NCBI GenBank assembly: GCA_965287045.1
Contig: OZ336885.1
Coordinates: 61,070,001 to 61,134,000 of the forward strand
Source of the DNA: Carcharhinus amblyrhynchos
Lineage: Eukaryota
DNA length: 64,000 nt
Direction: 5' to 3'
Numbering within the stretch: the stretch's first letter is position 1; the number at the start of each line of letters is the position of its first letter. The notes beneath the pieces are model-generated. The model searched no databases, was not told where the DNA came from, and saw only the letters and a program-made list of their open reading frames with translations. The position numbers were made by a program, and so were the translations under genes. Positions 14,200 through 52,446 of this stretch are shown in pieces.

Positions 14200-14720
14200 C
14201 TACTCTAAGTCTAGAGAGCTATTACCTCCACTGCTGACCCAGAGTGTGAAGACAGGATAAACAGGCCCGGTGAACTTGACATTGAAAGTGTGGATATGGG
14301 TTCCCAGGTTGGGGTTATAGAAACTGACTAGCCCTCCATTATAGTCCAAATAAACACCAAGCATTCTTTGCTGAGCCAGAAACACGTTGTGACCAAATGA
14401 CCTGAAATGTTTTGTATCACCGTTAACATTCCAAATTAACACTGTCCAAAAACCATTCTTGGGTGAATGTCTCCGCCACCTGGTTACTGCCAGACGTCTC
14501 TGAGACACTCCCACTCTCCACACCGTCCCTGCACTCGTTGACACCTGCCAGTAATACTTTCCATTTGTGAGTGCATCTTTGCTCCAGACGGTCCAGCTGT
14601 CTGAATGTTTCAACTTCTTCTCGCCTCTCGGCAGACGCCTGGCATTCAAAATGCTGATCTTTCCTTCCTTCGATAGAATAAAGCGTGGATCAGATGTCTC
14701 CGGATCTAGGGTGAACCTGA
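14200..14720 (-). CDS. Terminal exon: B30.2 / PRY-SPRY domain
   Basis: Acceptor ttgttcttgtttcaacaacag, phase 1, open to TAG: (V)RFTLDPETS...GKYYWQV...WRVGV...GFWTV...LGVYLDYNGGLVSFYN...HIHTF..KFTGPVYPVF. Contains the LDP, YWxV and LDY motifs. Confidence 0.95.
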
Positions 14721-21443: not shown

Positions 21444-21470
21444 CTTTATGACTAATGATTTTCTCAAAAT
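21444..21470 (-). CDS. 27-nt phase-1 micro-exon preceding B30.2 ((D)FEKIISHK)
   Basis: tgctgtttag|ATTTTGAGAAAATCATTAGTCATAAAG|gtaagg; splices in frame to VRFTLDP. Confidence 0.85.
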
Positions 21471-21739
21471 CTAAACAGCAATAATTGAAACAGAGAAAGG
21501 AATACTGAACCTTCAATGAATAACTTCATGTTAAACAGCACTAGCAGTGGCAGAAATCAAACACACTTTTATAAGCCGGGAGTTGAATGGGCTGCGTTCA
21601 CTTCTCGACAACGAAGTTTGCAAGGCTGAACTCAGCAGAATTCTGAGAAAACTTCTTTAACATCACTTCTGAGCAAGCACTGGGATTAACATTCGAATGT
21701 AAAAATAAGGTAACATTTTCCCTGTCTTGTGTTGTTCTC

Positions 21740-22070
21740 TGTTAATCTTGCTCTCTCTTTCTTTCTCCTCGCTCTCTTTCGCTCTGCCAATTTATTTGTG
21801 TCTCTCTGCTTCTGTATCCCTTTCTCTCTCTTTCCCTTTCACTTCAACTATCTGTCTATCTATCCATCTATCTGTCTATCTATCTATTTTTTTTCTCTTT
21901 CTCTCTCGCTGTTTCTTTGATTCTTTTCTGCCACTCTCCCTCTCTCAGTTTCTCTCACTTTCTCTCTCTCTCGTTTTTATCCTTCACCCTTCTTCTCTGT
22001 TTCGCTCTGTTCTTCTCGCTCCCTTGTCTCTTACTTTCTCGTTCCCACCCCCTCTCTCTCCTCTTCCCTA
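21740..22070 (+). repeat. CT-rich low-complexity tract with (TATC)n
   Basis: Long pyrimidine tract of TC and TATC units. Confidence 0.9.
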
Positions 22071-23136
22071 GTGGAAAGTGAACGGTTCCCTGAGGGAGAG
22101 TGAAAATTTATTCTCCATATCCAGTCCGTAAGTGGAAATATTATTTAATTATAATTGTGATACAAAGCAAATTATCTCATACTTGTTGCGATGGAAACAT
22201 ATGGGCGAATTATCTGAAGTGCTAAAGTTGTAAGGACGCCTTCATATCTTCACATCAGGCACGAAAATAACAAAATCCAAATCCTCAGCTATGCAAGGGC
22301 AGAATTTCCTCTTTCATGTTTGTGCGCTTGCTGTCCTGCAATCTGCTTATGCATAGAGTTCTACATATGAGTGATAAATAATACGTTGCCTGGCTGTTAG
22401 TAGATGTTAACAGGCAGCAACCACCCTACCCAACTCAGAGGTCTTCCCGCACATATGCTTTATCTTTAAGTGAAGCATAGAGAAATGGGCGGCTTGTATA
22501 GTTGATACGGCCTGCGATAAATTGCATTGAACTTTACCGAGGCACAGCAGGTAATTACATTAGGTGAAAGGATCTTACTGCTCATTGGTAAAAAATCAGT
22601 GCTATGCAAGCAATATTGAAGGCAGATCAGAATAAATTGTTGTTGTTTATTTGGGAACGGTTTTTATCCAGTAGTCAACTCCACTAACAAGTTAATTATT
22701 TGGTTACTTGGGCATTGACGCATATGACAACTTGCTTACACTCAATGTTTCAATACTGGCGATAATTTGGGAAACATGGCCGGTCAACCACTTGGAATAT
22801 TGGACAGTTCTGAAACTAACTACGCAACGCAAGGTCTTTGTATCGGTTTGATCAGAGCAATTCAATAAATACATCACATGGCCAGATGTTCACACTTGGG
22901 TGATAAGTATAAATGTGCGTAGCTTTGGATCAAAATTTACCTTAATAAAAATAGTGTAATTTGTACGTATCGTCGTTTAGAAGGCTGAATATAGTCGTAA
23001 AATGCCTACTGACATATTTCACTTTTCGTGAGTTATCCGTACTCTAACTGGACAAGACTTTGAAAAATGAAGAAACACCTTCGTTTGCAAAAACAGAGAA
23101 AAAAATCTATCCCAATAGACCTTTCACTATCCAGAA

Positions 23137-23400
23137 AGTGGTTAGCACTGCTGTCGCACAGCGCCAGGGACCGTGGTTTGATTCCAAGCTTGGGTCATTG
23201 TCAGTGTGGAGTTTGCATATTCTTCTCGTGCCTGCGTGGATTTCCTCCTGGCCCTCCGCATTCTTCTCACATTCAGTAATGTGCAGGTTTGGTGAATTGG
23301 CCAATGTGAAATTTCTCTAAGCATACCCGAGCAGGAGAGTGGCAACGAGGGGATTTTGTTACACTTGCTTCAATGCTGTGTTAATATCAGACTAATTGTG
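23137..23400 (+). mobile_element. tRNA-derived SINE
   Basis: AGTGGTTAGCACTGCTGTCGCACAGCGCCAGGGACC...GTGTGGAGTTTGCATATTCT core. Confidence 0.85.
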
Positions 23401-23559
23401 ACAAAAAATCTTTAATATTGCATCAGTGAACGCGCCCTAAATTTACTCTCTAAGTTTAGTCGCCAAAGGGACACGAAATACTCGTTACCATCAGGACAAA
23501 AATTCTCGTTTGTTCCACAGGCCATCCAGCAACGTCACACTTGTCTCCCTGTAGCAGCA

Positions 23560-24600
23560 GCGGCGTTTGACGACAGAAACTATACTCTCACATGTCACTG
23601 GCATTTGTCGCCACACCTCGCCCATAAATTTTCAACACGAGTTTATGAAACGGGGGGAGATCATCACGAGTCTGTAGCACAGAAAACCATCCTTAGTTTC
23701 CTCCTACTATCCGAGTTGGTTTCATGTGAATTGCCAATTATTGTTTGGCCAAACATACCGAGTCCCGTCCCCAACATCGTTTTCATTGAGGTAGATATCG
23801 AAATTAGGCAACCGATCATTTGCCTAGTTTGTAACACACCAAGTGACCTTCCGGTTCTCAGATCCTTGCAGAGTTCCTTGTGCACCTATGACTGTGTGGC
23901 CAAATTCCCCAAACTCGAATTTCACATTTGCTGTTGACTTCACGGTAGTGAGTCGATCTTACAGAATTGCAAACCGGAGTACATGGAAGATGTAGAGGAT
24001 CTACTGAACTGATGCGACGAAACCAAACTCTCCCTCAATGTGAACAAAACGAAGGAGATATTAATCAACTTCAAACAGCGAAATGAACGATGTGCTCCAG
24101 TCTACATCAACAGGGAAGAGGTGGAAATGTCCAGAAGTTTAAGTTTTTATTTGGCCAGATCACCAAACAACCTGTCCTGGTCCCTTTATGGCAAAGTTGT
24201 AGTTAAGAAAGCGCACCAACCTTTCTACATCTACATGAGGGGAAGCAAATTTGGCACATCCGCGAAGACTCACACCACCATTCACAGATAAACACAGGAA
24301 TATTTTGTCATCTTGTGGTCCCACAGTTTGGCTCCTGGTCTGCCCAAGATGGCATAAAACTACAAAGGGTCGTTAATGAAGCCCAGTCGATCATTCAAAC
24401 GAAGCTCCAGTCCATTAACTTCGTCTGTACTTCCCGCTGCCTCGGAAAAAAACAACTAGCATAATCAAGGAGCCCATGCACCCCAAACATACTCTCTCCC
24501 ACGCTCTTCCGCCAGAAAAAAAATACAAAAGTTTGAGGACGCATACTATCAGACTCAAGAATAGCTTCTTCCGTGCTGCCATCAGACATATAGTGTCGTA
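23560..24600 (+). mobile_element. Degenerate Rex1/Babar-type LINE RT 3' part
   Basis: LCTYDCVAK, LSLNVNKTKEILINFK...PVYINREEVE...NNLSWS...KKAHQ, HPKHTLSHALPPEKKYKSLRTHTIRLKNSFF. Confidence 0.8.
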
Positions 24601-25374
24601 TTTGTTGACCTTTCTCGAGAGTCTAATTGTGGCCGTAACATTACATTCTGAACTTCCTCCTTTCCATCTCTATGCATGTTGCGCTGCGTTTCTATACTGA
24701 GGAAGAAACACTAATTTCCACTTTATACTAAAATATGCAAATCAAATCAAGTCATATTGTGTACCAGCCTTCAAACGTGTTTGTGCTAGATGCTGTAACC
24801 GATCGTCTAATTATCTCTCAAATCGGATGATTGTTTCTGCCTCCCCAACTTCCCGGAAGTATGTCCAATATTCCCACTGCCCTCTCTATGAAAAATGTTT
24901 TCCTCAGCTTCAAAAGACTTCCATCCCCTAGTGATGCTCCCTTGTCAGATATTTTTCCGATGCTCGACGAAGGGGAAATGTTCCTTCCTACATACCCTCT
25001 CTGTTTCATTCATAACTGTACGCTGAATATTGTAATTATTAATTGTGGATTAAATAATTATCTTTACGTAGCAGTTCCTGATATATATTTAGTTTAAATT
25101 TCAAATAGTTAATCATTTGGAATTTCAATTAATTTGACCAGTAACAATTGATTCCATCCAATCGCTTGTGACGTATTGCATCTCATTTCTAACACAATAA
25201 TGCAATTATTCATTATGTCAATACATATGATATGCTACTGTTACATTTTATATGATTACTTATTTCTTATTCAATTGAAAAACAAATATAAATATATGTT
25301 GTAAAATTAATATATAAATTTCTCCCAGTTCTCTTTACAGTAGAACATAGTATGTTGGTCTTCCCTTCACATAC

Positions 25375-25410
25375 CTGTATCTTTGCCCACTTTCATCAAA
25401 TTCTGCGTTT
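25375..25410 (-). CDS. 36-nt phase-1 micro-exon ((E)TQNLMKVGKDT)
   Basis: gtctcttatttcag|AAACGCAG...GATACAG|gtatgt. Confidence 0.8.
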
Positions 25411-25553
25411 CTGAAATAAGAGACACATTTTTTGTTGTCACAGGACACATATCAACGAGCATGTAAATTCTCTGTCGTTCTCTGTTTTCCAAATTATGTG
25501 GTGGTAAATGATTCTGGAATACTACGTAATGCATCTGCAATCATCAACTTTAC

Positions 25554-25580
25554 CCAAATCCTTTGCTTCCGAATCTTTTC
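25554..25580 (-). CDS. 27-nt phase-1 micro-exon ((G)KDSEAKDL)
   Basis: tttcatatttcag|GAAAAGATTCGGAAGCAAAGGATTTGG|gtaaag. Confidence 0.75.
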
Positions 25581-25836
25581 CTGAAATATGAAACAAAATA
25601 TCCACTGAAAGACATGACAATTATCCATGCTTTATGACATCATTTCCCTGAAGTGCATGGAAGACAGGTATTATTGTAAAGGGGAAATGTCTTCTTATGG
25701 AGATACGCCCACGCACAAAATGTCTCCATCTCACTCGCCCTCAGTTTTTTGAAACTTTCCTGCCTTTTGTATGCGGACATTCTTTAAAAACATAAAATGT
25801 CACTTGCTCGACGTCCGCTGGAATAACTGAAATATA

Positions 25837-25905
25837 CGGGGCGGGGGGGGGGGGGGGGGGGGGGGGGTAGGGGCGGGGCGGTTGGGCGCAGGTGGGATGG
25901 AGGGG
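25837..25905 (+). repeat. Poly-G / G-rich tract
   Basis: Run of more than 20 G plus GGGGC units. Confidence 0.9.
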
Positions 25906-26894
25906 ATGATTCTTCTCGCCCGCTGCGCTGCGCTCAGCCGATCACCAGCCTCTCAGAACTTTTTCTCTAACGTAATCATACTCCCGCTGGAAATCACTGC
26001 AAGGCAGATTACCACATCGAATTCCACATGTCCACGTGAGTAGTGGTAGAAGAACGTTACTTTCTCCCTACTGCCAACCGACGCCCCCGCCCCCATTCCC
26101 ACCCCACAGCCCGCGCGTCAGGCGGCGATGTTCGATATTAAAGAGTTCCAGGCTTGAACACTCCAGAGCTTGGGACAAAATCCGTTAAGCCACCCCCGCC
26201 CCCTCCCCCACCCCCAGCCCAATCAGTCCAATTGATTGACTGATTGACCGATCTGTGTATGCGCAGTTGGCAGCTCAGTCCACCCATACCGCCTCTCCAT
26301 GGAAATCAGACAACCCCCTACAACCCGCTCCTCGCTTATAGGCATCTGGAGCAGAGAGTGCCGGATATTCGTTGAACTAAATATGCCTAAAAACATTGGG
26401 AGCTTCGTTATATGTTTCAGGGCGATGGTTAATTCTTGTCCAGAGCTTATCGCTGTTGTCACAAGGGATGACCTTCCAATTGTAATTCGGCTGCTGGCAA
26501 AACACTAATGTTCATCGTGACTGAAGTTCATCGTCTCATATAATTTAGATATAAATGCACGCGGGGGAGGACGTTTAATGTTCTTCCACTATCTGCATCA
26601 TTCATATGAAATGTACACGAAATTGTATCGAAGCACCTCTGAATGCAACACCCACTATGTCAACAACTGAAATAGCCTTACAAATTATGGAATGACCATT
26701 TCTAAAAATCTGTGATGTTCATGTGGTTACATTAAAGCAGCTGGGGACCATAATAATCTATATAAATACATAATACGTGATAACACAAACAAAATTAACA
26801 TAGTATAATGTCATTTAAACTGTTTGTAATATAATGTCAGATACTTTAAGAATGAAGTCTTTTTTGCAAAAAGAAGTATTTTATTATGTACAAT

Positions 26895-27055
26895 TGTGGT
26901 GGAGGCGGACACGCTGGGATCCTTTAAAACTTATCCGGATAGTCACATGAGCAGACTGGGAATGGAGCGATACAAACGAAACATCTAGTTGAACCAATGA
27001 GCGGCAGAGAGTTGGAGGGCCGAAGGGTCTGTTCTCTGTGCTGTATTGTTCCTTG
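26895..27055 (+). mobile_element. CR1 3'-end fragment
   Basis: GTGGTGGAGGCGGACAC...TTTAAAAC...GAGGGCCGAAGGGTCTGTTCTCTGTGCTGTA, a CR1-type 3' UTR. Confidence 0.65.
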
Positions 27056-28858
27056 TTCTATGTCTGTATATGAATATTTGGGGTTACATACTCCACTTTG
27101 ATCGGATGTCTTTAAGTTTTAGGGATACAGATGGTGTTTTATTTCAAACAGAGCCATTCATGGATGACGCACAAATTCCATATATTTTTACTTTTAGAGT
27201 GTTTTTGATAGTAAATAAGCTAAGTTTTATGTCAGAGATGATTTGCTCATCGGGAAGTTGTAAAAAGTTTTCAAGCCCAGTATTCACATGTTGCCTATTT
27301 TTACTTGCCTCCAATGTAATTTCCGTTGGATCTAGATCATAGTCAGAGTTGGAATGAAATACCACTTCTTTAATTACTTTAATGGGAGCTGAATATCAAT
27401 GCCCCGAATTTCGCCCCTGGTGTGTTAAGAAATTTGAAGAAAAAAATTAAACGGAAAGATTTCATTGCTGGTCAGCAACGCCAAATAAAGTCATTCATTA
27501 TTTTCTACCACGCTAGACGCTACAAACCATGGTCAGTTAATGAGCGCAGTGATGCATATAAATAGTATTGAAACAGGTATATTTTTGAATTACATTAATG
27601 TTTATGTTGACAGTTGGCAGGCTGGAGGCACTGGAATTTTGATCACAGAGTGTGATTTTTTTTTAAGCCAGTAGACATGGCAGCCAACACATGAGAATGC
27701 GTGGAGTTGTTTGGGTTACCGTGCTGTTGAGCGGAGTGGTGGCATAGGAGTGGTAATTTCAATGGAGAAATGAGTCGGCTCGAGTTGGCAGTACTGGAGA
27801 TAGCGGTGGCGTAGAGATTTTAATAATTTTCCCATCATCTCGTCGGTTCAAGGTAGAATGCGTGTCCCCTCGGGTTTTCTGCGCAGTGTAAGGGATATAA
27901 TCAGCGACGCTGCACAAAGTTGGAACCTCGTGTTTTCTTGGTTCTGGGATGTAGTGGGAAAAGCTGAGTTGGCTTCGCTGAATGATGGAGTCATTGCAAA
28001 TGTATAGGTTGGGACGGATTCAGAGAATTGAGGGGGTATGTCTTTGTTCAGTTGATAATGAAGTATCTTAAGGCTGTGGTAGTAGGTGATAGTGTGACTT
28101 CCGTCAACGGCGAGTTCGGCATGTTGGGGAATTGGGAGTGGTTTGGGAAGTCTACTGAAGTGTTGGAAAGCCAGTGATATCGCGTGGTAAAGATTTAGAA
28201 ATGACACTAGTCGTACTTATATTTCCTGGAATATTATTCTGTTAACTGGATAGGAAGCAACTGGAGTCTCCAATGATTTCCACGCGAATATTCATCTTTC
28301 TATGTGCCAAAGACTTCCATGGATTACTCGCCAGTCTCTTGGTGTGGCTACGGTGAACAATCAGAAGTCCTTGGAAAATATCAACATTCCTTCAGCTGAG
28401 TCTTTTGCATTGTCACCATTTGTCCTTTTGAAAATGGAATTTTTGAACTGACTTCTTCAATGCTGACCGGCCTTCACCCATCTGAGATTGTGCGATATTT
28501 CCTCCTGCTGCTCCTTTATAGGTTGCCTTAATTCCCGCCACTAAATGTCTCCTTTGTTAGCAATGCTTCCTGTTGACTCAGGGTCCACACTGAACTAAAA
28601 CAAATGCGAACTCATCATTTGCAACTATGTCTGAGGTCGATTTCTGAGGCCGATATTCTAATACAACACAGTCAACGCTCTGTAATTTTTCCTATGCTTG
28701 GGAGTGTCTCCTTTCATTTGGTTTTCCAGAGAGATTGCTTGCAATACCACAATTCACAATATATTCAAAACATAATGTTCGTGATGCACGCACGTTCAAA
28801 ATCCTAATATTCTTCAACCGATGGTGAGCACCTGGGACAATGTGTTGTTGAATCTTAC

Positions 28859-28885
28859 CATTCATTTTCTTCTGCAATTGTTCCT
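28859..28885 (-). CDS. 27-nt phase-1 micro-exon ((E)EQLQKKMN)
   Basis: gtctttatttacacag|AGGAACAATTGCAGAAGAAAATGAATG|gtaaga. Confidence 0.8.
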
Positions 28886-29534
28886 CTGTGTAAATAAAGA
28901 CATGTTTCAGGATCGCTTGAAATGGAAGTTTATTGGGAAGTTGTCTGCACAAAGAGGGAATGCCCTTTATAATAGTCAGACGTTCTGAAATGTGCATCAC
29001 CTCCATGTCACAATTTGTCCTACGTAGTGACCGATCTCACCACAAATGTTTCTACTTGCGTTTCAGAAAAGAAGTTTAAACTGCTTCTGTGGAGATAGAT
29101 ACTCATCTGAGGATGAATTTTTAAAAAGATGCTAACGTTAAAAAAATCGAAACTAAGTAATAAATGCGTGAATCGATCTGAAACGCGTCATATTAAATCT
29201 GTATCAACGAATTCTGTGTATATCCATACTTGACAGCGTTTGGAAAAAGTCAGTAATTAAATATTCTTCAATGGCATACTGCACCATAGTGTTCTCAAAA
29301 TGTTCAGGGAAGTTCAATTTTCTTTTTGAAAATCCAACACTGAGGAACACTGCACCATTGGCTGCTGGGAAAATAAGTGATATCTCCTTCATGCTAGTGA
29401 TCCCATTCTCTGGCAACGTTTCTTCACTTGACGATCAGTAAAAAGACGCGTCTGCTGCTGTACGTAATTAGTTTGAAACAGTTTGTTACTCAGTCGCCAG
29501 CAGATTTTGCTCAAGGGGCACTACATCACCTGAA

Positions 29535-29750
29535 GGATAACTAGGCATGTACACAATTAAATGAAAATTCGCGTGACTAATCCAGCTGAATTGCCTATCG
29601 TTGAACTGCGGGAGGAATTAGGAAAACCTAGCCAAACCCCGGCAGACAGTTTGAGAAGGAGCAAACATCACAGACAGAATTACCAAGACCAGGATCTAAC
29701 TGATGTCCTTAGCGCTGTGAGGCAACATTGTTAAACATGATGTCTCAGCG
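29535..29750 (-). mobile_element. Degenerate SINE
   Basis: Minus-strand AATGTTGCCTCACAGCGCTAAGG...CTGTCTGTGATGTTTGCTCCTTCTC resembles the SINE head and core. Confidence 0.55.
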
Positions 29751-29937
29751 CACCGCCCATCCATCCCTCCATCTCCCGCCCCTGTAGTCACCAACACTTA
29801 TCGCTAAATGAGCAATGATAAAATCAAAATCAAAATAGCCACTTACGACGTTGCATTCCATGAGTACATAATAAGCTGCGACACGGCATTTACAGTGACA
29901 TTCGCCATGTGAATGATTTTCATCACTTATGTCCCAC

Positions 29938-29973
29938 CTTTACTTTCCAGATTTTCTCGTAAAAAGTCAATCT
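29938..29973 (-). CDS. 36-nt phase-1 micro-exon ((E)IDFLRENLESK)
   Basis: gttcaattttcag|AGATTGAC...GGAAAGTAAAG|gtggga. Confidence 0.8.
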
Positions 29974-31130
29974 CTGAAAATTGAACATTGAGGAGAATGG
30001 TGTGAACTGAGCAATTGGGATATACTCTCTTTTTTTCCACTATCACTTTTTCGAGAATCGTTCAAGAACTATCATTGCTTTGCAATGCGATTTGCTCCGA
30101 TGGTGGCCAAAACCGATACACAGGAACCAAACAAAAAATCGTCACAGTCAGAGAGCGTTTCGATGATCAGGATTTAAGCAACATGAAATTGGACTTGGGT
30201 TGACTTTTCTCATGCAGATCCTTTAGGCGTTTACAGAATTCATGTTCATAACAAGATTTATCGGTCTCTGCTTGCAATATGACATGAATCACTAACGTTA
30301 TTTTAAGGAACAATATCGAATAAGTAAGTACACGAAATGTGGAAATGTATTGCCTGCTTCTACATTTGAATGTTCCAAATGTAACCACAAGCTTTTAGTA
30401 CTCAATTCCTAAGCTTTCATGCTCAGCGACAACTGAACACCCTACCTACACTGCTACATTTCCTAACTTTCGACCCCAGGGTCTTCTTCTCCACTTGAGG
30501 GCAATCGTTCGAATCGATGCCATAAGAAAAGTAATCTAACATGTAACCTCAAACTCACATTCCTACTAAAGTAGATGATATTGTTGATCCCTTGATTTAA
30601 AAAAAAACATATGTCTGGCTCTGCCGTAAAAGTATCCAGTACTCATCTTCCACTGTCTTTTGATGAAGAGATGTCCTGCGTTTCACGATTGGCTGACAGA
30701 AATATTATCGTCAACTTTCTCTTCTATGGGTGACCACTTATTTTAAACGGTGGCATCTAGTTCTAGATTCTCGTACACGATGAAATATTCTCTCCACTTC
30801 CACAATTTTAATATCCGTCACGATTAACTTTCGAACATGCCCCCACTTACACTGATATAATTTATTGGTACTGTCATCTTTTCAACTTTTCCCATTCCTT
30901 GTATTCATTAGGAAACAGACTCTGAATTGCAGCTAACGTGATTGACTGCTTCTTCCAACATTGATTTTAGCTTCAAATTTTGTGTTGGGGGATCCATTCT
31001 ATTGAATTTTAACCGCACTCCAGGTGACAGATATGTTATCCCTGACAATGTTACCTGGAAAATTTAAAGACTAAATCGTTTCTGAATGCGAATCTTACAA
31101 GAGTGTCGGAACTAATCGGTTGTAGCTTAC

Positions 31131-31159
31131 CCTTCCTTTTTTACATTTTTCCGATATTT
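31131..31159 (-). pseudogene. 29-nt micro-exon, frame-breaking ((E)ISEKCKK...)
   Basis: Strong sites tttgtttttag|...|gtaagc in a slot where 27 nt is expected. Length is not a multiple of 3; contains A5 and A6 runs. Confidence 0.6.
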
Positions 31160-31416
31160 CTAAAAACAAATCTATGAATAAGTTGTGTTTGACACAATTT
31201 GTTGTGGAAGATGCTGAAGATCCATTATAAGCTGTGTATTAGTGAAATTCAAATTAGGAATTGGTTCACATAACAATAGTTTTGATTACCCATACTCTTC
31301 TCTTTCATACGGTCATCTATTTATAAAATAAAACGTCATTTAATCCTCACAGATGGCGTGACAAAAACGAGGAAAGAGGCTCGCAACATTGCATAACCTA
31401 AGATGTGACTAACGAG

Positions 31417-31418
<2 letters not shown>

Positions 31419-31473
<55 letters not shown>
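31419..31473 (+). repeat. (CA)n microsatellite
   Basis: Perfect AC repeat of about 27 units. Confidence 0.98.
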
Positions 31474-31477
<4 letters not shown>

Positions 31478-32760
31478 ATATATATAAGCGTAGCGTTTCT
31501 GACGACAAGATTCAGCAATGAGTTTTGGAATCATTTGACAACCAGCCACCGGAAGAGATCTTAATAGAAATGGGCAAATGGTGTCCTAGGAGAAGTCATG
31601 TATTGGGAGCAAGAATCATAAAGAAAAAATGCAAGATGTTCCAGAACATCCAATTAAATAAAAGAAGGAACAATGGCCAATGGTTTGCTGAAGAAGTTGT
31701 CTACGATGAAGGAGAAATAGTAAAATGAGTGCAGATATCTCAGAGGGTAGAGAATGTCGAGGGAAAACAAAATCTTTCAGGAGTTTTCCGACAATGACCG
31801 TGCTTGCAAATCGAATTAACTATGCATCTGTTATCGAATCATTCTTTTGTATGTGTGTGCTGCATCTCGTTAGAACAATATGGAAACCTGGACGAGGTCT
31901 AGTGAAAAAGGGCCGAGAGGCGGGATAGGGAGTTACGTGATATGTCCATCAATGGCTTGCAATAACCACGTTTGGAGACGAATGCTAAACGGGAACATGC
32001 TGTGAGCAGCAGATTGGCACGGCTGAGGGCAACGATTTTCATTGAATAGAAATGCACCATGACGTGCCATTATAAGACTGAGCACGTATGACTGAGGATA
32101 AGCAGTACGTGGCTCGACCCTTCAGCCCTGTCCGGTCTTTAGTACGATCACGGTGTATCTCTTTATAAATTCAATACACTTCAAGAGGAGCACGCAATAG
32201 CATGGATGCAAAGCAATATCACTTTTGTCAATAGTTTAAAGCTGGCAAACCCGCTGGACAGGAAGAAAGCTGGAGTAAACATCTCTGACCACAGTCATCC
32301 CATCATTCCATTGGAAAATATATCGTGTCAGTTATCACTGGAACTTTGGAAAATCGTTTGATCTGTTTTTTCTTTTGAAGGGAGCGCGGCAACTCGACAG
32401 GTTGTGGTGTCACAGAGCGACACTTTGTGAATGAGATGTTTTCGAGTAATGATGAAATTATTGTATAATTCAATTATTCAGTGGAACAGAATTTCTAATC
32501 TCATGGGTTCTAATGTGTTGGAACTGGATTTGCATTATTAACATAACACATTCATATTTCGTATTAACATTAAACATTTTGTTACAAATTAGTGAATAAA
32601 GCGGACAATATCGAATTTCATGCACGCTGAATTTATCGAGCTCCACATGTAACATTATTGGCTGCAAATCGTGTTATTTCAAAGGCGAAGGCGGTTTGTA
32701 TGTAAAACGATCTGTTTCTGAGAAAATATTTCAAATATCAGCCAGATGAGGACTTCTCAC

Positions 32761-32796
32761 CTAACTTTTTCAGCTTCTTCACATTTTCTTGATTTT
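32761..32796 (-). CDS. 36-nt phase-1 micro-exon ((E)NQENVKKLKKL)
   Basis: ctgtatttaag|AAAATCAAG...AAAAAGTTAG|gtgaga. Confidence 0.8.
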
Positions 32797-33234
32797 CTTA
32801 AATACAGTTATAATGCTTCATCATTAGACTTGGAATGTGAACATCAAACAACAAAGACGGACGGCAGTCATAACAGTGAGCCTGCGCCTTTTTTTAAAGA
32901 GAGCCAATTTAAATCATTGACAATGAACACGCGATTTAATTAGGTCCGATATCAGATGGCTACTTGCCTTTGTCTTTATTGACAAGATTCTCTTCTGCCG
33001 TTTTAATGAGAGAAATGATTTTCACTTAGCATGCTTTGATCGCGGAAAATGAACAGAGATATGATGCCTACTTCATTCTATACTTGTTACCATTCGTCTA
33101 TCGATATATATTGGACACATATTCTGTGCAATGGGGCGTCGGACCAATTCATGATTAGGAAGCCTACATCCTAAAATGTAATCATCTCCTGCTGTTTCTT
33201 CCAACCCCCGCGATTCAAAATTATATCCTAGCAC

Positions 33235-33562
33235 CATCGAATCCCCAAAATGCAGAAGAGGCCATTCGACCCATCCAGGTTGCACTGAGCAGCTTACACA
33301 GGCTTCTTTCCTCCGTTTTATCCAGCACCCTCAAACATCAACCCCAAACAGATGGTTAATCCATCTAAAGTGCAAATTTATTACAGTAAGTTGGAATTTA
33401 GCATGCCCAATTGATAATTTCCCGCATACATTTTCACTGTGGGAGCACCCGGGGAAACACGCAAATACGGAAATACGCAAACTCCACACAGACAGTCGCC
33501 CAAAGGCGAAAGTGAACCCCTATTCCTGGAGCTGTGAGGCAGCAACTCTAACCGCCGTGCCA
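33235..33562 (-). mobile_element. tRNA-derived SINE
   Basis: Minus GGCACGGCGGTTAGAGTTGCTGCCTCACAGCTCCAGG...GACTGTCTGTGTGGAGTTTGC and CR1-like tail. Confidence 0.85.
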
Positions 33563-33595
33563 CGTCTCACACTTTATTGAAGCAACATTACTTAC

Positions 33596-33622
33596 GCACG
33601 TCTGGTGCTAATTTAGCCAATT
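33596..33622 (-). CDS. Possible extra 27-nt phase-1 micro-exon ((E)LAKLAPDV)
   Basis: ccccgccgcattag|27 nt|gtaagt; open frame but weak polypyrimidine tract. Confidence 0.35.
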
Positions 33623-34951
33623 CTAATGCGGCGGGGCTCAGAGGTAGCGCCTTGGGCGCTGCAGTCGACACTCCAAGCTCGAATAAAATGGCGCAACATG
33701 TTCGCCACGGAAGGAACGCTCATCAGGTTAAGGGGCCTAATAGTCAGTTTTAAAATCTTTCCACCACGCTCCCGACTGTTACGAAAATGTAAAGAAAAAC
33801 ATTATGGATAGGAAAATATGCGAAACGAGCGAATAATTGAAAATGTTCAATTCAATCTTTTAAAGACATCAGACAAAAAAAGCCGGTATTGTGCAAATTC
33901 CATCCAGAAAATATGTTTCTGACCTGCAGCACGCAATGCTTTTTTCAGGTCCGCAATTTCTGAAGAGGTACAATAAAACATAAGTTCTTTGCACTTTTTA
34001 GTAAGACTTCGAGGTTGGGCAAACAATCTCCACAATTGGAGCTCCAATAAGTCAGGAGTTTTATCTACTCCATTAGTTATCTTATTCTCTCTTTCATACT
34101 TTCATTGAACTTGCAAGTTGTACATTCAAGAACTTCATTTAACCGAGGCTGAACGCTATTGTAAGAGAGATTTTTAAAAATGTTATTACTGTTATAAAAC
34201 CGTATTTCGGACTGCTGTTAAAATATGACGGTCTTCCCTATTCTCCTGAAGTTTAAAAAAACAACGATTTCATTAACATGAACATCTGCAAACTAGCACT
34301 TTTGTCTTCCTGCACAGTGGACCGTCAGACTTCATGCTCCTGATGAAAATATTCAGGGTCAGTGTGGTGCAATGGGATGTTCACTAAACGTAAAATGTAG
34401 AGCACCAATAAATGTTTTGCTGACCAAAGCTGAAATCACAAAACGGCAAGTCGTGGAAATTAAGCCAACAACCTTTCCACTTCAAAGTCTAATGATGAAC
34501 AGGGAACCAGTGGCGAGTTTGCAGAGGAAACCCCTCTTCTGTCACGAATGACTTCTCACATGAACTTGACTCCCGTTCCAGAGCAATGTGCGAAAATCCG
34601 AAATTTCCTCTGATATTCATTCGAATGCATAATAGCTAAATGTATAGTTTGAGAAACCAACATCCCGAAAAGACTTTTGTTATATTTCTCAGAAACCGCG
34701 ATCTTCCTGACGAGTGTTGAGACCCGTAATACTCAAGTAAATACGCTATTTAACATATAATTTGGCAACATGTATTCTGCTCATCCGATTAACACTACAG
34801 TTGCTTATTTGTCCAATGTCATTTTCCAACCACTGGATGCCAAACGCTTAGAGTAGATGGAGCCGAAACATTCGTGTTATCATTGCTTCAAATAGATTAG
34901 TATTTGCAGCGTATTAACACCTACCACATGAATTTCAGCCATATTGCTCAC

Positions 34952-34978
34952 CTGAATTTTTTTCCCGTATTTTGTCAT
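34952..34978 (-). CDS. 27-nt phase-1 micro-exon ((D)DKIREKNS)
   Basis: ccactcactctacag|ATGACAAAATACGGGAAAAAAATTCAG|gtgagc. Confidence 0.8.
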
Positions 34979-36240
34979 CTGTAGAGTGAGTGGACGAAAC
35001 CAATTTGAAGTAAAGTCCCAGTCGTTTCCATGCTGAATACAGCTGCTTGTAACATTTGATAGATCATGATTGTATTGCTTTTGCGCATGACACTCAGTGC
35101 ATGTTAACATATGGTCCCCTTCATGTAATCCTTGCACAGATTAAACTTAAATGCATCAATTCAATTCAGAGAATTACATCCTTATTTCCATGCAGAAGAT
35201 TAACACTGGGTCCATTGTATCTGTTCCTGTCCTTCAAAACAACTTCAATTTAGTATCATTCCCTTCCACTGCCCATACAGCAACACAGCTTTATTTGCCG
35301 AATACTCTTCGAATGCGCTTTTCAGCATTTGCATTAAATATTCCTGAATCAGAATTCGTGGCATTCCCGATTAGAAGCAGCCACAGTGGAAATAAACATA
35401 TTTCAGACTCACAGCACATTGCTTATTTTGCAAACCATGTTAAAGCTATGTCCATGCCTTCTTGACCTGTGTTACAATCAGCATCTGTTGCTCCATTGTA
35501 CATCATCCTTTCCCATTAAACGTATTTTAAATATCTCTGACAAATCTACTTTTAACCATTTTTTTTCCTTCCTAGGAGTCAAGTAACTAGCTGGGTAATG
35601 CATTTTTATAATTGTACATCCCCGTCCCAGAAACATTCTTCGGAATCACTTGTACCTGCGGCCCAACGTACTAGCAATCTGTCTATCGTGTGCCGTCCAT
35701 AAGTGTGCAGAATGCATCAGTAGATTAAGCAACGTATTATACTTTACATTATTCCCGTCTAGAAATGATGCAGTATTATGTATTAACGTATGTTCTTTCC
35801 TGAGCGTCCTGCGAAATACATCACATGCAGCTTCTCCAGAATGGATGCAATTTACCAGCTACCTTCGGATTCCAGCAACTTCCCTAACTCCTTCTGAAGT
35901 CCTGAAATGTTTTATGGGCATTTGAAAATTCTTCCAAGTTGTAGCCCGACATAAATTTTGAAATTGTCCCCTGCATACTAGGAACTACAGCATTAGCATA
36001 CCTCAAGAAAATCAAGAGTGACAATACCGACACAGATGGAGGACAACAAGAAGAATACATTCTAACTGAATGAGATCAGTTGGTGACATGATTTGCTTTC
36101 CATTATTCGAACATTTATTTTTGTATCCATTTGCTGCCTTCTGATTTATTCCAACAGGGCAAATTTCTCACAAATCTATTTTGTGGCAGTATAAAAAAAT
36201 TACCTCGAAAAGAAATGTATACCAAAAACGACGGTCTTAC

Positions 36241-36276
36241 CTTCAGCGAGGCTTTGTGCCACCTTCTCGACCATTT
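36241..36276 (-). pseudogene. 36-nt micro-exon with mutated acceptor ((E)MVEKVAQSLAE)
   Basis: Perfect donor AAG|gtaaga and open phase-1 frame. Exactly 36 nt upstream the acceptor reads ttacGG instead of ttacAG. Confidence 0.6.
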
Positions 36277-38660
36277 CCGTAATATTAATTTGCACGTATA
36301 AAAAATACAGGCTACTTCTTGCGACTACTACCTGTATGTAACTTATTTTTTCGTGACATTTTACAGCTATAATGTACTAAGTAAAACTGATTTTGCATAA
36401 GGGCATGACAGCTGCAGTTTCTCAGTCCTCTGCCACCTCACCTGAGTACAGAAAAAAGTCGCACAATTAAGCCCAAATCCCCGGAAATTTCCATTGTCTG
36501 GTTCGTCAATATTTTCCCCAGAGTTTCAGAAATCACGCGTGCACAACTAATTCTCCCTAATAAGTTAGAACTCGCATAGTTACAAGGTGCCCTTGTCATT
36601 CACACGATCCTGGATAGCATTCGTCTCCTCGAAAAAGACGGATGTAAATTATCGATTAATTATTGCAGCTATGCGTCCTGTCTCCCGTGTTCTTAAATGT
36701 TTTAATCCATAATCGACCCAATTGCCCATTTTAACATCGTTGTACTATATTTATCTCCATTTATGACATCGGGGTGCTCTCTTATTTTTGTTACCAGTCT
36801 TTATTTTCACAACTACCATCACTTTTCTGATGAAATATTTCAAATCTCCACTGAAACTTCTGCATTCAAATAAGTTTTCAATTCACCTCCAACAAATTCT
36901 GAAGTTCTTTTTTTAAACACTCTTCGCCCTTTACACCGTTATCACCGTTCGGTTCTTTAAAAACCGTCATTAAAACTACTTTAGAATGTCGAACTCTATC
37001 TGCAATTTCTCTTAGATTTCTTCTTCCACATCATTCTCACAAATTGGTATTCTATAGCTTATGCAACCTATTGCAATTGCAGACGTTTCGTTTCATAGCT
37101 TTAGGCACATTTATTGTATTATTCAATCCTTTGGAATATTGTTTCGCTTTCAGCAACGCAGTGAGCTCCGTAACCAGCAACACCGTCCCTTTTTGTTCCA
37201 TTCCATATCCTGCTTGTAGCCACGAATGTTAGTCACACACTCAGTCCCTTCCTTGAGTCAGGCCTCCGTTATCATTCGAAAGTCATATTACCACAATTGT
37301 ATATGTTGCTCGAACTTGCCAATCTTATCTCTTGCATCGTGTATCCAGGGATATGCACGGTAAACCAGATTTTGACATCATTATCTCATTCGATCGAACG
37401 TAATTCACCATCCCACCCTCCAACTTTTTATTTGTTCTGTTCAGTACTTTGTGTATTCCAATATCCTTTCTAGGAACTCCTCTAAATTTCGAAGCAAAAA
37501 TCTAACACGTCAAAGCCCTTCGTCCAGAGCAATGGCAAAACGCCCCAAGTGTCAGTCCCAACTCTGTTCCGGAGGCAATGCTTCCGGCTTCCGCAGTTTA
37601 ATCTCCCACACAGTCCGACCCACTTTCCCAGAATTCAAATGTCCTCCCTCCTGAAATACCTTCCCAGCCGTTCAAAAATCTGCGTGCCCTTCCATTTCTG
37701 TGATCAAGTTCACGTTGCAATGAGGATAATGTAGGCAAAAGTGTGATTTATCGACACTTATTTAGATTAAGATCAATTTACAAAGTATTTTCGTTTGAGG
37801 GTGGAACCTCTGGCTTCTCAGTTCGTCTCGGCACTTTGAAAACTAGTGTGCACTCTCATGGTCCAATGCAAAATTGTAGAATTTTTTTGACATTTCCAGC
37901 CATATAATAAGGGAAACATTACGCGGAAGTGGAATAGAGAGGAGCTTCGAGGTGGCGGGGACAGAAGTTTTGTAGTTAGGGTATGTCGGATAGGAAGTAG
38001 GAATTGTTGCAGCAGTCTGGAAGTTGAGTTATTTCAAAAGAAATGTGCAAACTGGGACTTAGGCCGGTGCGGATGTTTCCATAGCTCTGACTGATTTGTG
38101 AGCTAGCTGTATTAAAACCATGCTAAAATGTGCACCATATTTAAAACAGCAAAATAAAACAAAATAAAAACAAATTAGACCCATTATCGATTTGTGATGT
38201 TCGTGGCAACTTTCAGTGCACAACATTACTGTTCGGTTTCATCCGTTAGCACACCATGCCGAAGTAATTATTTGTTTCAAGTTTCTGCAAAACACGGTAA
38301 GAATTAAGATCGGCAGGATGTTGTCGTAAAACAATATTTTTTTCCTCTGCAACACATTTGTAGCGAAACAAGGATGATGTTTTTTTTTGTTGCGTCGTTT
38401 CAATTAATGTGTTTTAAAGAATTTACTTCTACTTTGCTTAATCGTGACGGATATAGCGCGACGCCCTTTCTCTGGCATCTGATATTTCATGATCTCTTTG
38501 TGCTCACCATCAATCCGTGGTTTAGATTCGAGTTCTGAAATGCAATTTTCGAGGAGTAGTTAGATTATGACTAAATCGTGCAGCAGAAATTATATGAATG
38601 AAAGCGCGCAAGCATGGGTATCAAACGTGGAATGCAAATGGTTCGTTTTTCTCCAATTAC

Positions 38661-38687
38661 CTTTTTTCATGTCGTTGATTTTTTGTT
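38661..38687 (-). CDS. 27-nt phase-1 micro-exon ((E)QKINDMKK)
   Basis: gattctcaacag|AACAAAAAATCAACGACATGAAAAAAG|gtaatt. Confidence 0.8.
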
Positions 38688-39249
38688 CTGTTGAGAATCA
38701 GATAACATAATTCAGTTTTTTTTTTCTGGACATTGGACGAGTCAGGTACTCTGCGTGTATAAACACAAGCAACATACTTGTCTTAGTGTACCATTCGACA
38801 CTGATACAGATTCCGTGAGCCGATACTTTCTCTTGACGGCTACAAACTTGGCATAACTACGGGCACCTGGATTTTTTTTTCATTTAATGTGGTAACTGTA
38901 AACTTGGCTATACAAGCCAACGAAATGCGTAGCTACAAATTCATTATAGACCGCAGAACGTCAAGCTTTTTGTAGGACCATATTTAAGTGCCTGGTGGTA
39001 TCAGTTTAATCAAGACATAGACTATTTGCCCATTGAGATAATTTCCAGATTCGGGTGTGCCACATTTGGTTTTGCTGGTTCAATCGCTATATTTGGGCAC
39101 TTTAATTCCATAACTGGGGCTGGTCAGAAGGATTGGACTTTGTCTTCTAATAACATAGCACAGCTAGATATTAGAACGAACATTTAAGATAAATTAGTGT
39201 GATTTCCGACGATCAGTTCTTAGTTCCGAAACCAAAAAATTGGACTCAC

Positions 39250-39285
39250 CCAAGCCGTTGATTTGTTTCTGCAGTGTGGCTATCG
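39250..39285 (-). CDS. 36-nt phase-1 micro-exon (xIATLQKQINGL)
   Basis: tttcatttttcctctcag|CGATAGCC...GGCTTGG|gtgagt. Confidence 0.85.
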
Positions 39286-41308: not shown

Positions 41309-41552
41309 CTGAAAATTGGAATTGTGAACAACAATCACGTCGTATTTGCTGATACAGTATATGCTGGTAGAATCTGAATGATGTGCACAATAACATATTA
41401 CATGCAAAATAGGAAAACAATGCACGATTATTTTTTCCAGAATAATTCGCATTTCTCTTTCCGATGTAATCTTTCCTCTACGAAAGATAAACTATGAAAT
41501 ATGTAGTGACATGGAGCAGTAGTTTCCCGTCACGTAATAACACAAAGCGTTT

Positions 41553-43487
41553 AGTTAGTTAAGGAGCACATCACAGTCGTGCAGAGGGAGGATAATATGG
41601 AGGAGTTAGGGATTGGGTCGCTGTGGGTGGAGTTGAGGAATAGGAAGGGAGCGATTGCTATGTTAGTGGTGTACTATAGGCCACCCATCAGCCCAAAGGC
41701 AGTGGAAGAAGACATTTGTAAAGACATTTCAGATAGGTGCAGAAAGAATAGGGTTGTTGTAGTGCGTGACTTTAACCTTCCTGTAGTGGATTGGAAGGTG
41801 CCTAGAGCTGGGCGTTCGGAATTTGTAAAATGTGTGCTGGAAGGGTCCTTGGGGCAGTACGTAACTAGCCCGACTAGGGAGGGGGCTATACTGGATTTAG
41901 TTTTGGGTAATGAGCCAGGTCAGGGGGTTGAGGCTGCAGTAGGTGAACATGTGGCTAACAGTGACCACAAGTCTGTCTAATTTAGGATAAAAATGGAAAA
42001 GGATGAGTGCTGTCCAGAGGGGAGGGTGCTAAACTGGGCAAAGGCGAGCCATAGCCGGATCAGGAAGGAGCTGAAGGACACTGATTGGGAGAGGGTGTTA
42101 GCAGGTAAGTCCACGGCTGGCAAGTGGGAGGCTTTCAAGGACAAACTGAAAATGTTGCAGGAAAGACATGTGCCGGTAAAGAGGAAGGATAGGAAAGGCA
42201 GGATTAGAGAGCTGTGGATTGCCGGGGATATTGAGGACTTGTCAGGAAGAAGAGAGAGGCATATGTTAGGTCTAAACAACTGGGAACGGACAGGGCACTG
42301 GAGGAATATAGAGAGAGCAGGAGGGAGCTGAAAAGGGGAGTTTGAAGGGCGAAAAAAGGGCATGAAATTGCTTTGGCTGATATGATTAAGGAAAATCCTA
42401 AGGCATTTTACTCTTATATTAGGAACAAAAGAGTGGCTAGAGGGAAAATCGGTCCTCTTAGGGACAAAGGAGGGGAACTGTGCATAGAGTCTGAGGGAAT
42501 GGGTGAGATCCTGAATGAATACTTAGCGTCGGTATTCGCGAAGGAGAGGGGCTTTGTATCTTGTAATGTCTTGGAGGGAGCTGTCGACCAGTTGAAGGAA
42601 ATATCCATTACGAGGGAGGAAGTGTTAGGGTTTTTAGGCAGATAAAAACTGATAAAGCTCCGGGGCCTGATGGCATTTATCCCAGGCTGCTTCGGGAGGT
42701 GAGAGATGAAATTGCTGTGCCTCTGACGCAAATCTTTGTCTCTTCTTTGGACACAGGTGAGGTCCCAGAGGACTGGAGGATAGATAATGTGGTACCGCTG
42801 TTTAATAAGGGCAGTAGGGATAACCCTGGAAATTATAGGCCGGTGAGCTTGACTTCAGTGGTAGGAAAATTGTTGGAAAAGATTCTTAGGGATCGGATGT
42901 ATAAGCATTTGGAGCGTTGCGATCTGATTAGGGATACACAGCATGGTTTTGTTCAGGGGACGTCTTGCCTTACGAATCTAGTAGAATTTTTTGAGGAGGT
43001 GACAAAAATGGTTGACGATGGGCGAGCCGTTGATGTCATCTATATGGATTTCAGTAAGGCGTTTGACAAAGTCCCTCACGGTAGGCTGGTAGAAAAAGTT
43101 AAGGCTGATGGGATACAGGGATAGGTATCTAGGTGGACTGAAAACTGGCTCGGCAACAGGAGACAGAGAGTAGTAGTGGAAGGGTCCTTTTCTAGCTGGA
43201 GGTCTGTCACCAGTGGTGAGCCGCAGGGCTCAGTACTGGGACCTCTTCTATTCGTAATATATATAAATGACTTGGAAGAGGGCGTACGTGGTGTGATCAA
43301 CAAGTTTGCAGATGACACCAAGATGGCAGGATTGACGGATAGCGAGGAGGAGCGTCAGGTGACACAGCAAGAGATAAATAGGCTGGTATACTGGACAGAT
43401 AAATGGCAGATGGAATTTAATCCTGATAAATGCGAGGTGATGCATTTTGGAAGGAGTAATGCAAGGAGGAGTTACATGATAAAGGGT
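41553..43487 (+). mobile_element. CR1 LINE internal fragment (EN C-half + RT), truncated at both ends
   Basis: [61 protein letters not shown]; a few stops and frameshifts. Different subfamily from the young copies. Confidence 0.97.
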
Positions 43488-43897
43488 ATTCATCCCGATT
43501 CTCCAAAGCCCTAATTGAATGTACAATGCCCTTTCGAATCTTATCTGTAACTGATAGAAAAAAAATCTCAACATCCTCCGATGAATCCGAAGTTGTCAGC
43601 GACTTTAAACATTCCGAAAAAAAATCTAAATATACACAGCTTCCGAAGTCGTGTGTAACATTTGCCACATACTATGCCCTGTATTGGGCACAATGTTCCG
43701 GTTGTAACACTATGGTGTTCATCGTAATGGCTTCAACAACTTTGGTCTGCAAACCAAATTTCCAAATAATCTTTTATAACACACTGTGGAATTGTCTTTC
43801 AAAATTAGAAGGCATGCGACATTTTCCCAATCTCTTCTGATATATGTCCCCATTATGTGTTTGCCGATCAGTGGGATTCCTTTAAAATTACACTCAG

Positions 43898-44180: not shown

Positions 44181-44984
44181 GTGACCTCTTTCTGAACTTT
44201 AGCGATCCTCTGATTCTCAAAACACCCCGCGGATCTTTCCAAGTAAATCCATGTGATATTTCCCAGCACTGTGTAAAAGAAACGTTGAACTGCTGCCCGT
44301 TCCCTGCCGCCGTATGAATATTTTCTCCATAATATTTAACACATCCAATTACAGTGACTTGAACTCCACTGTTAAGACGACCATCATACCCTTTCAAAAC
44401 AAGGTTTGTAAGCAGTACATAACAATTAACTGTCCTGCATTAATCGGTTTTCTCTCATTCCTCATCCTAAAATGGAATCAATTAAATAAAGTTTCTCTTT
44501 CCATATTCAAGCAGCATTTGCCGAACTGCATTGTTTGTTCCCTTTGTTTTCAAAATCAATTGTAATCACTGCCTTTAATGTGTTTGTCATTGTCTCCTCA
44601 TTAAGGACATTGCAAACCGTTCGTTTTCTCGCACATCTCTGCATGATTAGGAATTGAACATTAAGCCCAATATTTCTGTAATTATTGAAATGATTGAACT
44701 TCCTCGGAAATCTGCTGACTTAATACTTTAACGGTACATTTTCTAATAGTTTATAATGATTTGTTCGAGAGTCAAGTTTTATGGGAGATTTTTTTTATTA
44801 GTAAAAGAAAAGGCGTTGAAATGTTTGACAACCGTAGCTGCTCCGCTTTCACTGACCTGCTTGTTTTAATTCATTCTTCAAGTACGAAGTTTCTGTAACG
44901 GCAAATAGCAGATTAATTCCGAAGCCTAGGATTACCGTTCCGAAAGCGTCCTTCAGAAACGAGAATTCGGCTTTTGCCATTCAC

Positions 44985-47327: not shown

Positions 47328-47441
47328 CTTTGTTATCTTCAGGCAGCACTTCATCTGTTGAGCACAAAACGAGATTACAATGATTGATAGCAGGAAGGAG
47401 AACAAGCTACGTTTTCCCTGAAACACCGTTTCGCACTCCAT
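47328..47441 (-). CDS. Candidate signal-peptide exon
   Basis: ATG...MECETVFQGKRSLFSFLLSIIVISFCAQQ... with hydrophobic core; donor AAAG|gtgggt 61 nt upstream of the IgV-like exon. Confidence 0.55.
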
Positions 47442-51712: not shown

Positions 51713-52446
51713 AGAACATAAGAACATAAGAAATAAGAGCAGGAGTAGGCCATCTAGCCCTTCGAGCCTGCCCCGCCATTCAATAAGATCATGGCTGATC
51801 TGTCGTGGCTCAGGTCCACTTTCCCGCCCTCTCCCCATCACCCTTAATCCCCTCTCTTATCAAAAACCCATCAACCCGCGTCTTAAAAATATTTAGCGAG
51901 GCAGCCTCCACCACTTCAACGGGTAGAGAATTCCAGAGATTCACCACCCTTTGAGTGAAGAAGTTCCTCCTCAACTCCGTTCTAAACAGCCCCCCCCTTT
52001 ATCTTGAGGCTGTGCCCCCTAGTCCTACTGTCTTTTTTGAGCGGGAAGAGTCTCTCCACCTCTATCCTATCCATCCCATTCATCATCTTATACGTCTCAA
52101 TGAGATCTCCCCTCATTCTTCTAAACTCCAACGAGTACAAGCCTAGTTTATTCAGCCTCTCCTCATAGCTCAACCCCCTCAACTCCGGTATCAGCCTAGT
52201 AAACCTCCTCTGCACTCCCTCCAAGGCTAAAATATCTTTGCGCAGGTGCGGCGCCCAAAACTGCACACAGTACTCCAGCTGCGGCCTCACCAATGCCCTA
52301 TACAGCTGCAGCAAGACCTCCCTACTTTTATATTCAATCCCCCTCGCGATGAAGGCCAGCATCCCATTCGCCTTCCTGACCACCTGCTGCACCTGCAAGC
52401 TGGGTTTTTGCGACTCATGCACAAGGACCCCGAGGTCCCTCTGCAC
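51713..52446 (-). mobile_element. Young CR1 3' fragment
   Basis: VQRDLGVLVHESQK...KIKGG, near-identical to the 4318-4888 copy; same microsatellite tail. Confidence 0.97.

Follow-up and report, generated by a model that had tools for sequence, protein, structure and literature searches.

What gene would place coding exons of only 27 and 36 nucleotides (nt), one after another, ahead of a single B30.2 (PRY-SPRY) exon? This question is raised by a 64,000-nt window of Carcharhinus amblyrhynchos DNA (C16:61,070,001-61,134,000); positions marked "ext" extend the window numbering, with C16 position = ext + 61,070,000. A sequence-only reading of the window had listed nine clean and two damaged micro-exons and interpreted them as the coiled-coil stalk of a B30.2 protein. 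We recovered all nine clean exons on the minus strand, each in phase 1 with AG/GT ends and a final G, together with both damaged units (Table 1). Although all 11 units were present, the list was incomplete: three clear exons and one weak one had been missed within its range (21444-39285), and since these were added the alternation of the two lengths has become stricter than first listed. Read in transcript order, the range now gives 36, 27, (27), dead 36, 27, 36, 27, 36, 27, dead 29, 36, 27, 27, 36 and 27 nt, followed by the B30.2 exon. A scan of the window with generic splice-site scores only returned nine candidates of 27 nt and eight of 36 nt on the minus strand, no more than four for each of the remaining lengths between 15 and 60 nt, and no 27- or 36-nt candidate on the plus strand. 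Collectively, the analyses reported here leave us highly confident that these exons belong to one real coiled-coil-B30.2 gene.

The array extends far beyond the window. Following 1.2 Mb of neighboring DNA, we found that it reaches about 1.07 Mb further upstream than the range first described, which had taken in only the 3′ tip and underestimated the scale about twentyfold. The array ends at ext 1,113,193 (C16:62,183,193), a plus-strand array starts at about ext 1,147,500, and tblastn detected a single B30.2 exon in the first 1.064 Mb. Over 1.1 Mb, splice scores alone yielded 73 minus-strand versus 9 plus-strand candidates at 27 nt, 81 versus 9 at 36 nt and 25 versus 10 at 21 nt, with 3-18 candidates at other lengths on either strand. 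Phase 1 was the stop-poor frame, with stops in 11/103 candidates of 27 nt and 16/105 of 36 nt, versus 54 and 78 in phase 0. The length spectrum, the strand bias and the stop-poor phase 1 ruled out a chance origin. Repeats were likewise rejected as an explanation: apart from the gene itself, protein matches in this stretch were limited to fragments of long interspersed elements (LINEs). Reverse-transcriptase frame fragments of such elements, which we take to be CR1-like, lie in the introns and constitute the long open reading frames of the window (41,555-43,514, 51,982-54,323, 62,642-63,217 and 4,204-4,794).

Subsequently, a trained model with leave-one-out scoring identified 225 exons versus 7 plus-strand decoys. 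At a score of at least 13 it retained 213 exons (106 of 27 nt, 95 of 36 nt and 12 of 21 nt), three of them with a stop; some ten more exons, 24-42 nt long, are likely to exist. GC donors occurred in 13/225 exons. An NAG at the exon start was found in 35/106 of the 27-nt exons versus 2/95 of the 36-nt exons; it could act as a tandem acceptor able to drop one residue. One block at ext 986-1,034 kb embeds 12-14 exons of 21 nt, each a single heptad as in chicken BG genes, within the 36/27 array, and 5/12 of the 21-nt exons carry a cysteine at the same core position.

The proposal that the exons form a two-exon, three-heptad module of 36+27 nt was borne out by their alternation and heptad pattern. 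Neighboring exons alternated between 36 and 27 nt in 153/200 cases, versus 100±7 (maximum 124) in shuffles. Hydrophobic residues occupied positions 2, 5, 9 and 12 of the 12-mer and position 4 of the 9-mer, whose position 7 was mostly Lys. In the combined 21-residue unit, the a positions (2, 9 and 16) were Leu, and the d positions (5, 12 and 19) were Cys/Leu, Leu/Lys and Lys, respectively. The period-3.5 power was 55, versus 25±4 after shuffling of the exon order, indicating that the heptad register is carried by the order of the exons. Furthermore, the 210 stop-free exons translate into 2,145 residues with no stop arising at any split codon. The first reading's coiled-coil stalk, continuous in frame with B30.2, was likewise supported. 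As a continuous coil, with 0.1485 nm per residue, the rod would measure ~320 nm. Cysteine occupied a d position in 27/93 of the 12-mers; Cys at d favors inter-chain disulfides in two-stranded coils. The suggestion that in-frame skipping could tune both length and register has indirect support only, from annotated isoforms of relatives that often differ by nine residues. Loss of a 36+27 pair would keep the heptad register, whereas loss of one exon would shift it by two residues.

At the 5′ end, we identified a leader candidate on the minus strand at ext 1,123,785-1,123,845 (C16:62,193,785-62,193,845), 10 kb upstream of the first micro-exon. It begins with ATG, encodes 20 codons with a hydrophobic character and ends in a phase-1 GTAAGA donor; from its ATG to the B30.2 stop the gene would span 1,109,646 bases. 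Both strands of the gene body (1.108 Mb) were free of any comparable exon at this cut-off. At the 3′ end, the B30.2 domain is basic (23 K/R versus 10 D/E) and its fold matches the B30.2 domains of BTN3 and TRIM7/21 at 26-32% identity, with BTN3A1 as the best solved structure match (E 4.6e-35). An AlphaFold model of the domain was of moderate quality (predicted local distance difference test 64), with its first 42 residues poorly modeled.

The sequence-only reading had framed the stalk in butyrophilin or BG terms, as a cytoplasmic tail behind an immunoglobulin (Ig) ectodomain, and this frame was not supported. Profile searches of 25,962 open frames over 1.264 Mb gave a best Ig match of E 1.3 (8/8 held-out domains recovered in the control), and over the same 1.264 Mb the best matches were E 0.13 for RING (31/31 recovered) and E 0.11 for B-box (27/27 recovered). 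Searching by tblastn with 14 Ig-bearing proteins found no Ig domain. A genome-wide V-set search scored 150/1,793 candidates, none of them on C16, and is too partial to count. A search for internal transmembrane exons, covering those of 45-400 nt in phase 1, yielded nothing credible: the one candidate that passed the hydrophobicity cut did so at its edge and was unlike a membrane span. The 5′ end instead carries the candidate leader exon, which resembles a signal peptide. With Ig, transmembrane, RING and B-box exons all undetected, the gene is neither a butyrophilin/BG nor a TRIM gene; an ordinary BTN or TRIM was rejected on the Ig, RING and B-box profile searches.

The nearest named B30.2 relatives supported the cartilaginous-fish context. 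In a quick tree of 65 rows, for which 50 of about 150 outside rows were picked by best score, the family B30.2 domains formed a separate 15-row clade (SH-aLRT 100) outside the Ig-bearing rows and not grouped with BTN B30.2 domains. It includes proteins of Leucoraja, Narcine, Scyliorhinus, Cetorhinus and Callorhinchus; all named members are chondrichthyan, and none carries Ig or RING. The chimaera protein XP_042192744 (1,697 aa) joins a hydrophobic start, a rod of ~1,480 residues and a B30.2 of the same type in one frame. Its rod parses into units of 12 and 9 residues (239 versus 79 in shuffles, z 13.7) with Cys at the same position; this parse covers two chimaera models only, and a z of at least 4 was also reached by 5/120 other proteins (best 5.4). 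Moreover, 10 of the 14 differences between its two annotations are indels of 9 or 12 residues or a 9/12 swap. As a chimaera has it too, the module predates the holocephalan-elasmobranch split. Isoforms with one 9-mer difference occur in Narcine, Callorhinchus and Scyliorhinus, other differences being of 6 and 7 residues or alternative starts; exon boundaries in relatives were deduced solely from such isoform differences. Skate XP_055510696, like the chimaera protein, has a hydrophobic N-terminus. AlphaFold of the skate relative gave long helices and a B30.2 fold, and its homodimer prediction (score 0.01) was uninformative.

RefSeq names these relatives "TRIM39/58/69-like", and three word-indexed protein searches returned only 1, 2 and 7 family members. 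Public model XP_038668997 and one other contain LINE-derived stretches, which indicates that annotation pipelines mis-build genes in the introns of this family. As a lead only, the ESM Atlas holds a cluster of 137 chordate proteins (~1,579 aa) with SPRY and a coiled-coil family (score 0.84), which could be the family of the window gene or an analogue. Outside the family clade, the bowfin (Amia calva) protein MBN3300211 joins a C-terminal B30.2 to long neck repeats and a membrane segment of type II, and is possibly another extracellular B30.2. In the literature covered, with supplements excluded and subscription journals mostly outside coverage, we found no description of the family or of the 36+27 module.

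On sequence grounds, the ~220 exons likely splice into one message for a signal peptide, a rod of ~2,150 residues and a C-terminal B30.2, and secretion of the predicted protein is likely. We somewhat favor a secreted tether, made of a disulfide-stapled coiled coil that ends in a basic B30.2 head. The leader would be cleaved as a signal peptide and the protein released; the chains would form a parallel coiled coil, stapled outside the cell by disulfides between the cysteines at d; and the basic head may bind an anionic partner at the end of a rod that would hold it at a distance, in the way that collectins and angiopoietins use their long spacers or tethers. Rod length would be set over evolution by exon duplication and death, and within a tissue by skipping, with removal of a pair taking out three heptads in register and removal of a single exon adding a kink. 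More tentatively, and short of an even chance, we propose an ancient, largely unannotated chondrichthyan family of megabase genes with up to 200+ micro-exons, encoding secreted disulfide-stapled rods of up to ~300 nm with a distinct B30.2 head, whose length and flexibility are programmed by inclusion or skipping of the 36+27 module and which may thus act as spliceable molecular rulers.

Several observations weigh against the secreted tether. Splicing in this species is inferred from sequence, and the isoforms of relatives are RefSeq predicted models. We chose the cut-offs for leaders after the candidate had been seen, and one equally good chance leader was found on an empty strand elsewhere, so we regard the leader as a good candidate rather than a proven start. 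A hydrophobic N-terminus is absent in Narcine and in one Scyliorhinus member, most annotated relatives are just 200-460 aa long, and the search for a leader of the downstream neighbor paralogue gave no clear candidate. In the chimaera protein, a cluster of basic residues after the leader would also fit a membrane anchor. With respect to constraint, exons and flanks of an internal duplication diverge by 5.4% and 6.9%, a difference that is not significant, and the duplicated stalk exons show a nonsynonymous-to-synonymous ratio (pN/pS) of 0.71 (18 pairs), that is, weak constraint on amino acids.

The chimaera basic run is part of the case for the same gene with opposite topology, in which an uncleaved N-terminal signal anchor would leave the rod and B30.2 in the cytosol, as a butyrophilin-like tail lacking Ig that tethers something far from the membrane. 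BTN and TRIM B30.2 domains are intracellular, the best solved match is BTN3A1, and, according to excerpts of PMC5938342, the chicken BG cytoplasmic tail uses 21-nt heptad exons, of which the window gene has 12. Nevertheless, we consider this topology unlikely, given that the hydrophobic stretch of the leader, with only ~14 residues, is shorter than expected of a membrane span and includes Glu and His, and that cysteines recur at the core d position in both the 36- and 21-nt exons. We judge it improbable that the leader is a chance match, or that the array serves several shorter units whose promoters lie inside it, to yield soluble cytosolic coiled-coil-B30.2 products like TRIMs that lost RING and B-box. 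Several short relatives without a hydrophobic start, and leader-like exons that arise by chance at looser cut-offs, speak for this reading, whereas the whole array has one B30.2 exon only, and the chimaera model unites leader, rod and head. The least probable reading, to which we give a slim chance, is a pseudogene, silenced recently and now decaying throughout, with the damaged exons as its first lesions. Beside the 210 clean exons stand 19 copies in which a single splice base is broken, and three exons with a stop; this count leaves out five broken-site matches that make better sense as intact 24- or 30-nt exons and includes 36241 by hand. The pN/pS value would also suit decay, and the intact B30.2 is not decisive, as absence of a stop has P 0.6 at the implied 2% decay. 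However, uniform decay at that rate predicts 7.8 stop-bearing exons rather than three, 17/19 broken copies fall in one 340-kb stretch holding 85/213 intact exons (Fisher p 3e-5), the six related B30.2 exons on C16 are all stop-free, and each copy of the internal duplication has preserved its splice sites. This tandem duplication of ~28 kb (window 60,100-64,000, ext 60-115 kb; 91-93% identity) copied 13 micro-exons, and splice sites, length and frame were kept in both copies for 13/14 candidate exons (P about 0.02 at the flank divergence); the remaining candidate scored low and looks like part of a LINE. Taken together, this evidence agrees with birth and death of single exons within a spacer in which register matters more than sequence. 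Older block duplications were seen at ext 527-551 kb and 906-924 kb.

Related B30.2 exons, all stop-free, lie at C16:60.45, 61.08, 63.07, 63.15, 63.74 and 66.44 Mb, with one more on C9. Five of the six C16 genes, the window gene included, have upstream micro-exons on their own strand. Genome-wide, tight exon-class patterns placed 15/15 and 9/10 matches in C16:61.4-66.2 Mb, each on the strand of a downstream paralogue. Consistently, the trained model found 17 exons versus 1 on the opposite strand upstream of the 60.45-Mb gene, and 36 versus 0 and 24 versus 2 upstream of the 63.15-Mb gene. Several leader candidates were seen for the latter; most are weaker than one of 14 aa that has a strong donor and lies 31 kb above the gene's last micro-exon. 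For the head-to-head paralogue, the sole candidate is a signal-peptide-like ATG exon on the plus strand (ext 1,098,577-1,098,649) inside the first introns of the window gene, so that the 5′ ends of the two genes may overlap. This paralogue also contains, at ext 1,189,000-1,260,400 on the plus strand, repeated 42-45-nt Gly/Pro-containing exons between 36-nt exons, a different module that may provide hinges. On C9, one match to the 27-nt pattern and a family B30.2 (C9:103,490,008 and C9:106,383,661) lie inside a large TRIM-like B30.2 cluster, and this locus may mark the origin of the family.

Table 1. Exons and exon-like units of the coiled-coil-B30.2 gene within the window, in window numbering.
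Feature	Position	Strand	Evidence or remark
Terminal B30.2 (PRY-SPRY) exon, divergent subfamily	14200-14720	-	phase 1, open to TAG stop; Pfam SPRY E=4.6e-17; acceptor position; fold like BTN3/TRIM B30.2
27-nt micro-exon, nearest to B30.2	21444-21470	-	splice-site scan
36-nt micro-exon	25375-25410	-	splice-site scan and trained model
27-nt micro-exon	25554-25580	-	sequence inspection and trained model
27-nt micro-exon	28859-28885	-	splice-site scan and trained model
36-nt micro-exon	29938-29973	-	splice-site scan and trained model
Possible decayed 27-nt exon	30851-30877	-	purine-rich acceptor, final T; read by eye only
Damaged 29-nt exon-like unit	31131-31159	-	inclusion would shift frame
27-nt micro-exon, newly added	31290-31316	-	trained model
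36-nt micro-exon, AAG acceptor	32761-32796	-	trained model
27-nt micro-exon, GC donor, newly added	32968-32994	-	trained model
36-nt micro-exon, newly added	33924-33959	-	splice-site scan and trained model
27-nt micro-exon	34952-34978	-	splice-site scan and trained model
Dead 36-nt exon, acceptor CGG	36241-36276	-	sequence inspection
Weak 27-nt exon candidate, newly added	38508-38534	-	trained model; similar units recur upstream
27-nt micro-exon	38661-38687	-	splice-site scan and trained model
36-nt micro-exon	39250-39285	-	splice-site scan and trained model
27-nt micro-exon, GC donor, upstream of the range first described	41451-41477	-	trained model
36-nt micro-exon	44857-44892	-	splice-site scan and trained model
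27-nt micro-exon	47328-47354	-	splice-site scan and trained model
27-nt micro-exon, end of one copy of the ~28-kb internal duplication	60112-60138	-	trained model
36-nt micro-exon; array goes on past the window	61786-61821	-	splice-site scan and trained model

If the array is one gene, it would be among the most exon-rich in vertebrates, where titin has 363 exons and nebulin 183, and it has stayed hidden from annotation because nearly all of its coding sequence lies in exons of 21-36 nt; the cluster of six family genes covers about 6 Mb. The predicted layout recalls collectins, angiopoietins and C1q/EMILIN-type proteins, which combine a signal peptide, an oligomerizing rod and a C-terminal binding head, although their heads differ from B30.2, and we know of none with a micro-exon-coded rod of such length. 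The products of schistosome micro-exon genes (MEGs) are small and lack a B30.2. By analogy only, with no homology expected, they resemble the predicted product in being secreted and encoded nearly wholly by short exons, as described in the available part of bioRxiv 2023.06.21.545858. A precedent for an extracellular B30.2 is offered by vespryns (ohanin), B30.2-only proteins in a gland secretion; as portrayed in the accessible text of PMC12730704, and likened here by description only, they differ in being snake-specific, having ~107 residues and lacking a stalk.

Class IV TRIM genes (TRIM21/39/69 and fish ftr/btr/hltr) share with the window gene a coiled coil, a PRY-SPRY and a multigene cluster, whereas the window gene has no RING or B-box that we could find, and its coil is far longer and lies in micro-exons; fish TRIMs sometimes lose RING or B-box, according to the part of PMC3137616 available. 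Butyrophilins (BTN1A1, BTN2A, BTN3A and reptile BTNs with longer heptad runs) likewise place a heptad stalk ahead of a single terminal B30.2 exon, but they have IgV, IgC and transmembrane domains and few heptads (excerpts of PMC5938342 and PMC12841164); in its available sections, the 2026 survey (PMC12841164) takes IgV, IgC, a transmembrane segment and B30.2 as the defining parts of BTNs, also for those of cartilaginous fishes. Chicken BG genes, as set out in the accessible portion of PMC5938342, have signal, IgV and transmembrane exons followed by 27-38 heptad exons of 21 nt that form a cytoplasmic tail, their exon number varies between genes and alleles, and the tail is contrasted there with the B30.2-ending tails of mammalian BTNs, which have few heptads. 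They resemble the window gene in building a long coiled coil from numerous symmetric micro-exons that are in phase 1 and have their first codon split (same excerpts). Unlike BG, the window gene has ~220 exons, mainly of 36+27 nt, and a B30.2, with no Ig or internal transmembrane exon found.

It is thus a B30.2-related gene that falls outside both BTN/BG and TRIM. The array illustrates how coiled-coil register can fix the size of exons, and with this system one could ask directly whether a protein rod is made physically longer or shorter by exon skipping. Our findings link three designs known separately: the heptad exons of BG type, the B30.2 head of BTN and TRIM proteins and, probably, secretion.

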